Of a stretch of 38,043 nucleotides of DNA, positions 1,822-1,998 are shown one piece after another. The notes under the pieces are model-generated. The model ran no database searches. It had not been told where the DNA came from and saw nothing but the letters and a program-made list of their open reading frames with translations. Made by a program: the position numbers and the translations under genes. Positions within the stretch are counted from its first letter, which is position 1. Each line of letters starts with the position of its first letter. The stretch lies in sequence record OR845259.1. One strand, 5' to 3'. This DNA comes from Escherichia phage ECO95 1-6-1.

Positions 1822-1998
1822 TTACCCTTTAAGTAAGTCGTAAAATCCACCATTCACATGCTTAGGAGCAGAAGGCCGACGAGTAGACAGACGATGACAT
1901 TTAGGGCAAACATCATTTTCTCGTTCAGAAATCTTTTTAATTTTTTCATATTCATGCCCGCAATCTTCGGATTGGCATTTATAATCATACATTGGCAT
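1822..1998 (-). CDS. FmdB-like zinc-ribbon small protein (58 aa)
   Basis: Hand translation MPMYDYKCQSEDCGHEYEKIKKISERENDVCPKCHRLSTRRPSAPKHVNGGFYDLLKG; two CxxC pairs; N-terminus resembles the FmdB zinc-ribbon family; fills the gap between flanking genes exactly; below ORF-track cutoff. Confidence 0.55.
   Translation of the reverse strand: MPMYDYKCQSEDCGHEYEKIKKISERENDVCPKCHRLSTRRPSAPKHVNGGFYDLLKG

Follow-up and report, generated by a model that had tools for sequence, protein, structure and literature searches.

The open reading frame at 1822..1998 of Escherichia phage ECO95 1-6-1 encodes an FmdB-family zinc-ribbon protein and is the orthologue of phage T4 gene 39.2 (NwgI)

The minus-strand open reading frame at positions 1822..1998 of the Escherichia phage ECO95 1-6-1 sequence (OR845259.1) is a real, strongly conserved zinc-ribbon gene, a member of the FmdB family and the orthologue of phage T4 gene 39.2 (NwgI). 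Its product is probably an early zinc-ribbon protein with the host GroEL chaperonin as its target, as for T4 NwgI. The window, i.e., the whole stretch of 38,043 nucleotides that was analysed, comes from a T-even phage (Tequatrovirus), and its best DNA match is phage ADUt (99.4%), followed by T2 (98.4%).

The frame runs from an ATG at 1996..1998 to a TAA stop at 1822..1824, and its full translation is the 58-aa product MPMYDYKCQSEDCGHEYEKIKKISERENDVCPKCHRLSTRRPSAPKHVNGGFYDLLKG. The original prediction had described a 58-aa minus-strand frame that fills the gap between two annotated ones, and both the coordinates and the length are correct. The spacers are of 2 nt at both ends (TAA-TT-ATG), one to the goF stop and the other to the start of the frame at 1448..1819. 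A Shine-Dalgarno-like AAGGA, read from the sequence at 2005..2009 on the minus strand, lies 6 nt 5' of the ATG within the last goF codons and is the putative ribosome-binding site of 39.2. A promoter and terminator scan returned 19 promoter-like sites against 17.7 expected, and hence no promoter dedicated to 39.2 can be claimed.

The proposed FmdB-type identity is borne out by the curated family models. The 58-aa protein scores 45.7 bits with the Pfam model PF09723 (Zn_ribbon_8; cut-off 34.4, E 6.7e-12) and 44.9 bits with the NCBIfam model TIGR02605 (FmdB family zinc ribbon protein; cut-off 31.3, E 8.7e-12), where the alignment spans positions 1-39 of the 52 of the HMM, and it also matches phrog_1076. 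The M-P-x-Y-x-[YF]-x-C ribbon start of the family is present as MPMYDYKC, and across a 42-sequence alignment M1, Y4, Y6, and C8 do not vary and P2 hardly does. The four cysteine ligands are C8, C13, C31, and C34, and on the strength of this motif and of the modelled fold the protein is predicted to bind zinc. The first knuckle, C8-QSED-C13 (1960..1977, minus strand), is invariant in the T-even orthologues. It is a C-x4-C pair, and the signature MP.Y.Y.C..C, under which the frame had been described, was therefore wrong about its spacing; it is the second knuckle, C31-PK-C34 (1897..1908, minus strand), that is a CxxC pair, C34 being invariant and C31 nearly so in the 42-sequence alignment. The ribbon is followed by the tail NGGFYDLL (1831..1854, minus strand, with GGFY at 1840..1851), which is identical in all T-even orthologues.

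The AlphaFold2 model, built on the 42-sequence alignment, has four short strands, comprising residues 3-8, 16-20, 28-30, and 37-40. The mean pLDDT is 76.8, with values of about 83 over the ribbon residues 1-40 and of 60-67 in the tail. The best structural match of the model in BFVD is T4 Q01434, and the model also superposes on the BFVD models of FmdB-family proteins. In the PDB, the best match by sequence is bL31, with an E-value of 0.78, and Foldseek found 0 matches at E ≤ 0.001, returning generic zinc ribbons only (RbpA, the MCM N-terminal domain, and an RNA polymerase subunit). With no significant PDB match by either sequence or fold, there is therefore no structural homologue there with a known mechanism.

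That the frame is a genuine gene, lying below the length cut-off of the open-reading-frame track, was confirmed by these model scores together with its conservation. Length alone would be no proof of this, because non-genic opposite-strand frames of 58-136 aa abound within the same 6 kb. The bases of 39.2 carry two further frames, one of 52 aa on the plus strand and one of 44 aa in another frame. Plus-strand frames of 94-136 aa lie antisense to minus-strand genes at 1045..1455, 2013..2297, 3425..3742, and 3842..4240, and look like by-products of the codon usage of the coding strand, not to be counted as genes on present evidence. Such neighbours would speak for 39.2 being itself a chance frame in AT-rich intergenic DNA, a reading to which we give practically no weight and which is refuted by the conservation data. 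Not only do the family HMM scores exceed the curated cut-offs, but a tblastn search against 50,697 phage records finds matches to the protein in 885 records, 851 of which cover at least 80% of it in one piece; the protein identity is at least 99% in 215 of the 885, and it is 100% in over 200. The dN/dS ratios of the orthologues extracted from fetched loci are 0.02-0.14 (Nei-Gojobori), at dS values that reach 1-2 or saturate, and the frame is therefore under strong purifying selection. The metal ligands are conserved as well, the four cysteines and the APKHVNGGFYDLL tail being unchanged in every T-even orthologue extracted, and deletion of the gene in T4 has a genetic phenotype.

To place the features of the ribbon in the wider family, 1.84 billion representatives were scanned exhaustively with HMMER, which returned 155 proteins at E ≤ 1e-3, mostly of 55-70 aa. 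In common with the FmdB/PF09723/TIGR02605 family, the 39.2 protein has the MPxYxYxC start, two pairs of metal ligands about 17 residues apart, and a KISE-like middle segment. A first difference lies in the first knuckle, where the family most commonly has C-x2-C and the 39.2 protein C-x4-C. Among some 140 short family members, the C-x2-C spacing occurs in about 80, C-x4-C in about 40-44, C-x1-C in about 9, and C-x(1-3)-H in 8, with C-x2-H accounting for 4 of the latter. A second difference is the Ser/Gly-rich low-complexity C-terminal extension of the family (the "SSSS" of the TIGR02605 name), which is missing from the 39.2 protein, as this ends after NGGFYDLLKG. Many short FmdB-family members are likewise devoid of the extension, and the model cut-offs do not require it.

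In one subclade of 39.2 homologues, which includes that of Krischvirus Ec_Makalu_003, His takes the place of the second Cys in the first knuckle (C-x2-H-G), and the predicted site becomes Cys3His. From the spacing variants and the C-x2-H form we therefore take it that a plausible zinc ligand is always kept. One related representative has also lost the first Cys.

The tail too has counterparts in the family. Of the 132 short members with a sequence that fits the ribbon pattern, 56 carry a G-G-[FW]-[YF] motif some 15 residues past the second knuckle; it takes the form NGGFYD in phages and, in members of bacterial type, KGSGWYxTDY. Among distant family members from phages and bacteria, the related motifs KGSGWY and HGGFYD are seen. 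The occurrence in both groups marks the tail as a trait of the family as a whole, not as something invented by phages. We have also considered whether GGFYDLL might imitate the GroES mobile loop as a device peculiar to phages, an idea rejected as stated because G-G-[FW]-Y is found family-wide, bacteria included. The tail may be an interaction surface.

The assignment to T4 gene 39.2 is based on the surroundings of the frame as well as on the protein itself. On the minus strand of the window, the order is gene 39, gene 39.1, a 123-aa frame, the 39.2 frame, goF, cef, and, further on, dexA. The frame thus sits in the slot of 39.2, with goF immediately before it and 39.1 and 39 after it, all on one strand; according to the record annotation, RB69 and T4 carry 39.2 at the corresponding place, and the homologous coding sequence of T2 (NC_054931) is annotated as "39.2: FmdB-like transcriptional regulator". 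The same label is given to the protein in many phage records. The description of the gene as unannotated accordingly holds for the open-reading-frame track, but not for the public records, where it is annotated as gene 39.2. The original prediction did not recognise the frame as T4 39.2/NwgI, for which a GroEL-modulating function has been published that is not apparent from the name "FmdB".

Gene 39, which encodes the large subunit of DNA topoisomerase II, is represented by its 5' part (1..1112, minus strand) and runs off the start of the window; its translation closely follows T4 gp39, and the annotation of T2, T4, and RB69 agrees. Between it and 39.2 lie two frames over about 710 bp, and the placement "next to the topoisomerase gene" is for this reason only loosely true. 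The first of the two is the 39.1 orthologue (1182..1442, minus strand; 86 aa from its ATG), assigned by T2 and T4 annotation and by phrog_902 (E 1.3e-37). The 39.1 product, whose N-terminus resembles a signal peptide and bears an LAGC lipobox (MKYINRSIAALVLAVSLAGC..., read from the translation), is predicted to be, probably, a small lipoprotein. The second is the 123-aa frame (1448..1819, minus strand), which matches phrog_622 with an E-value of 3.5e-30. This slot between 39.2 and 39.1 is variable, holding a hypothetical protein of 105 aa in T2 and of 141 aa in RB69, while in T4 it is empty, 39.2 and 39.1 abutting each other.

On the other side of 39.2, goF (2001..2426, minus strand; 141 aa) is annotated at the homologous place in T2, T4, and RB69 and also matches phrog_622, with an E-value of 1.9e-41. 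The 123-aa frame was considered as a goF paralogue on account of the shared phrog_622 match, yet pairwise BLASTP finds no similarity between the two; any relationship would therefore be remote, and paralogy is not asserted. The cef gene is recognized by Pfam PF24050 (E 5.5e-35). Between cef and dexA, at 2655..4671 on the minus strand, there are frames of 93, 162, 180, and 179 aa; the corresponding hyperplastic stretch is annotated in T4 and T2 as motB, motB.1, and motB.2, with differing lengths and numbers.

These data identify the frame as the counterpart of T4 gene 39.2. The product is 81% identical (47/58, no gaps) to gp39.2 of resequenced T4, with which it shares the length of 58 aa, the C-x4-C ... 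CxxC ligands, and an identical APKHVNGGFYDLLKG tail, and the two genes share their setting, with cef and goF upstream and gene 39 downstream. The present allele differs from T4 gp39.2 by 11 substitutions (M3L, E11K, G14A, H15K, E27D, N28T, K33D, S38A, T39V, R41L, and P42V), which lie for the most part near the knuckles and within the 38-42 linker, and the 123-aa frame is inserted here between 39.2 and 39.1. The identity to the RB69 homologue, ORF006 (NP_861696), is 93% (53/57). RB69 is alike in the flanking goF and in having a frame between the 39.2 homologue and gene 39, while its protein is of 59 aa, has 4 substitutions, and ends in KKG instead of KG. The Krischvirus homologue (Ec_Makalu_003, QHJ72955) is 44% identical and retains a NGGYYD tail motif and a place upstream of the topoisomerase gene 39; it is unlike the present protein in its C-x2-H first knuckle, and it has no goF nearby, dexA lying upstream instead.

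The comparison with T4 requires resequenced genomes. The T4 reference (NC_000866/AF158101) annotates 39.2 with 45 aa only. In the region concerned, at record positions 5639..5839 of NC_000866.4, it reads "...gcttcctaag..." where the present phage has "...gctcctaag...", and the rest of the T4 reference frame (…KHGNNGFYDLLKG*) runs on in another frame. All the resequenced T4 genomes listed (T4T, KJ477684-6, MT984581, OL964735, and OZ records) differ from the old reference at this point, and the two that were examined, MT984581 and OL964735, encode a 58-aa 39.2 abutting a full-length 39.1. The 45-aa form is thus a product of errors in the old sequence, the extra base among them. The 39.1 annotation of the T4 reference, a 65-aa fragment starting at an internal ATG, likewise stems from errors in the old sequence, 39.1 being 86 aa long in resequenced T4. 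UniProt Q01434 keeps the 45-aa form as "Uncharacterized 5.1 kDa protein", and the short form is still propagated by RefSeq.

A few other database entries, among them those of Shigella phage vB_SsoM_113 and Salmonella phage Manna, are 47-55-aa chimeras of 39.2 and an overlapping alternative frame (e.g., ...VCPNVIVCLLVGLLLLSM), which means that these records contain frameshifts. For such records an error of assembly or sequencing is more probable than a pseudogene. Frameshifts or loss of the Cys pairs in otherwise syntenic relatives had been named as findings that would speak against the gene. The frameshifts encountered are rare and look like sequence errors, and the sole ligand change in syntenic relatives is that from Cys to His. 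The conservation of the frame and of its cysteines, which the original prediction had proposed to check, is as expected for a gene, at near full length in 851 of the 885 records and with the four ligands kept in the T-even orthologues.

A function has been described for the T4 protein. T4 gp39.2 (NwgI) was reportedly characterised as a GroEL modulator in a 2012 study by Ang and Georgopoulos (Genetics 190:989-1000); the gene is reported to have been first isolated from RB69, in a GroEL selection, and the homologues of T4, RB43, and RB49 reportedly behaved alike. Genetics and biochemistry suggest that Gp39.2 shifts GroEL towards an "open" conformation able to bind GroES-type co-chaperones, and certain groEL mutants, used as hosts, completely block a T4 that lacks 39.2 (PMC5153855); the same GroEL result for T4 39.2 is summarised in PMC4396842. 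A time-course omics study of T4 places the 39.2 transcripts in the early class, as it does those of goF and cef, whereas its mass spectrometry did not detect the protein (Class_P = NA; PMC9697503, Table S2). It is possible that the frameshifted 45-aa entry was used in the mass spectrometry search of that study.

On this basis, the following mechanism can be suggested for the present phage. The gene, which is tightly packed against its neighbours, would be translated from its own AAGGA ribosome-binding site on an early rightward-to-leftward transcript that would also bear cef and goF. The product would be a 58-aa early protein consisting of a four-ligand zinc ribbon (residues 1-40) and the conserved NGGFYDLL tail. 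It would act on the host GroEL chaperonin and bias it to the "open" state that accepts GroES or the phage co-chaperonin, and the GroEL-dependent folding of phage proteins would thereby be secured in hosts with a suboptimal GroEL. An action on GroEL is the most likely function because of the orthology with the characterised T4 protein, and it is by analogy with T4 that we infer both the early expression in the present phage and an activity of the present allele equal to that of T4 gp39.2. The GroEL mechanism as worded here follows secondary descriptions of the T4 work (PMC5153855, PMC4396842).

We have also considered two alternative functions. The name carried by the databases would make 39.2 a transcriptional regulator that binds DNA or RNA polymerase and alters early or middle transcription of the phage or of the host. 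Such a label is present in both the RefSeq and the PHROG annotation, and the gene is placed among the early gene-expression modulators cef, goF, and motB. However, the label is inherited from the family name through automated or inherited annotation, and no experimental support for it was found in the literature searched. The FmdB name itself reportedly goes back to a gene lying beside formamidase in Methylophilus methylotrophus, whose regulatory role was no more than a proposal. The top Foldseek matches in the PDB do include zinc-ribbon proteins of RNA polymerase complexes (an RNA polymerase subunit and RbpA) and a YdjO-SigA model, but only with E-values of 0.24-1.2, and none reaches 0.001. 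The protein is only 58 aa long and carries neither a helix-turn-helix nor any other DNA-binding domain, and where the 39.2 orthologous group has been studied by experiment, in a single study, the result points to GroEL. A regulatory role of this kind is, in our judgment, improbable.

A role together with the phage DNA topoisomerase, or in another function of DNA metabolism, is more improbable still. It would be suggested by the location of 39.2 upstream of gene 39 in the same orientation, which is kept across the Straboviridae genera Tequatrovirus, Mosigvirus (RB69), Krischvirus, and Tegunavirus; in Krischvirus the homologue directly adjoins gene 39, and in Tegunavirus only a homing endonuclease lies between the two. 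T4-like genomes are, however, colinear as a whole, such that a conserved order is expected without any functional link, and it is to this general colinearity that the conserved position is attributed. The Certrevirus homologue, moreover, has unrelated neighbours, being located between a pyrophosphatase and an HNH endonuclease, and no topoisomerase gene is annotated within the 5-kb stretch examined there. The literature searched likewise contained no link between 39.2 and the topoisomerase.

Cellular members of the FmdB/Zn_ribbon_8 family, which is found in many bacteria and phages, are labelled only as "putative regulatory protein". The literature searched yielded nothing functional on the FmdB zinc-ribbon family, the name "FmdB" colliding with formylmethanofuran dehydrogenase subunit B and with flow-mediated dilation. 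As far as found, the cellular family is without an established function, and only its phage member has one. Because the only characterised member found is a GroEL modulator, and because the ribbon and the G-G-[FW]-Y motif are common to phage and bacterial members, the whole family might consist of small chaperonin (GroEL) co-factors, in which case the phage protein would be a borrowed host-type modulator and not a phage invention. We regard this extension as a long shot.

Gene 39.2 as such is already known, since hundreds of T4-like phages carry its annotation and the T4 gene has been characterised by experiment, and the present finding is one of annotation hygiene only, from which in itself no new biology follows. 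It shows how a characterised small phage protein has come to be obscured in three ways, namely by the frameshifted T4 reference, by the "uncharacterized" entry Q01434 in UniProt, and by the inherited regulator label in RefSeq, which is being spread to hundreds of phages. The label that fits the protein is neither a blank nor "transcriptional regulator" but "gp39.2/NwgI-like GroEL modulator, zinc-ribbon protein".
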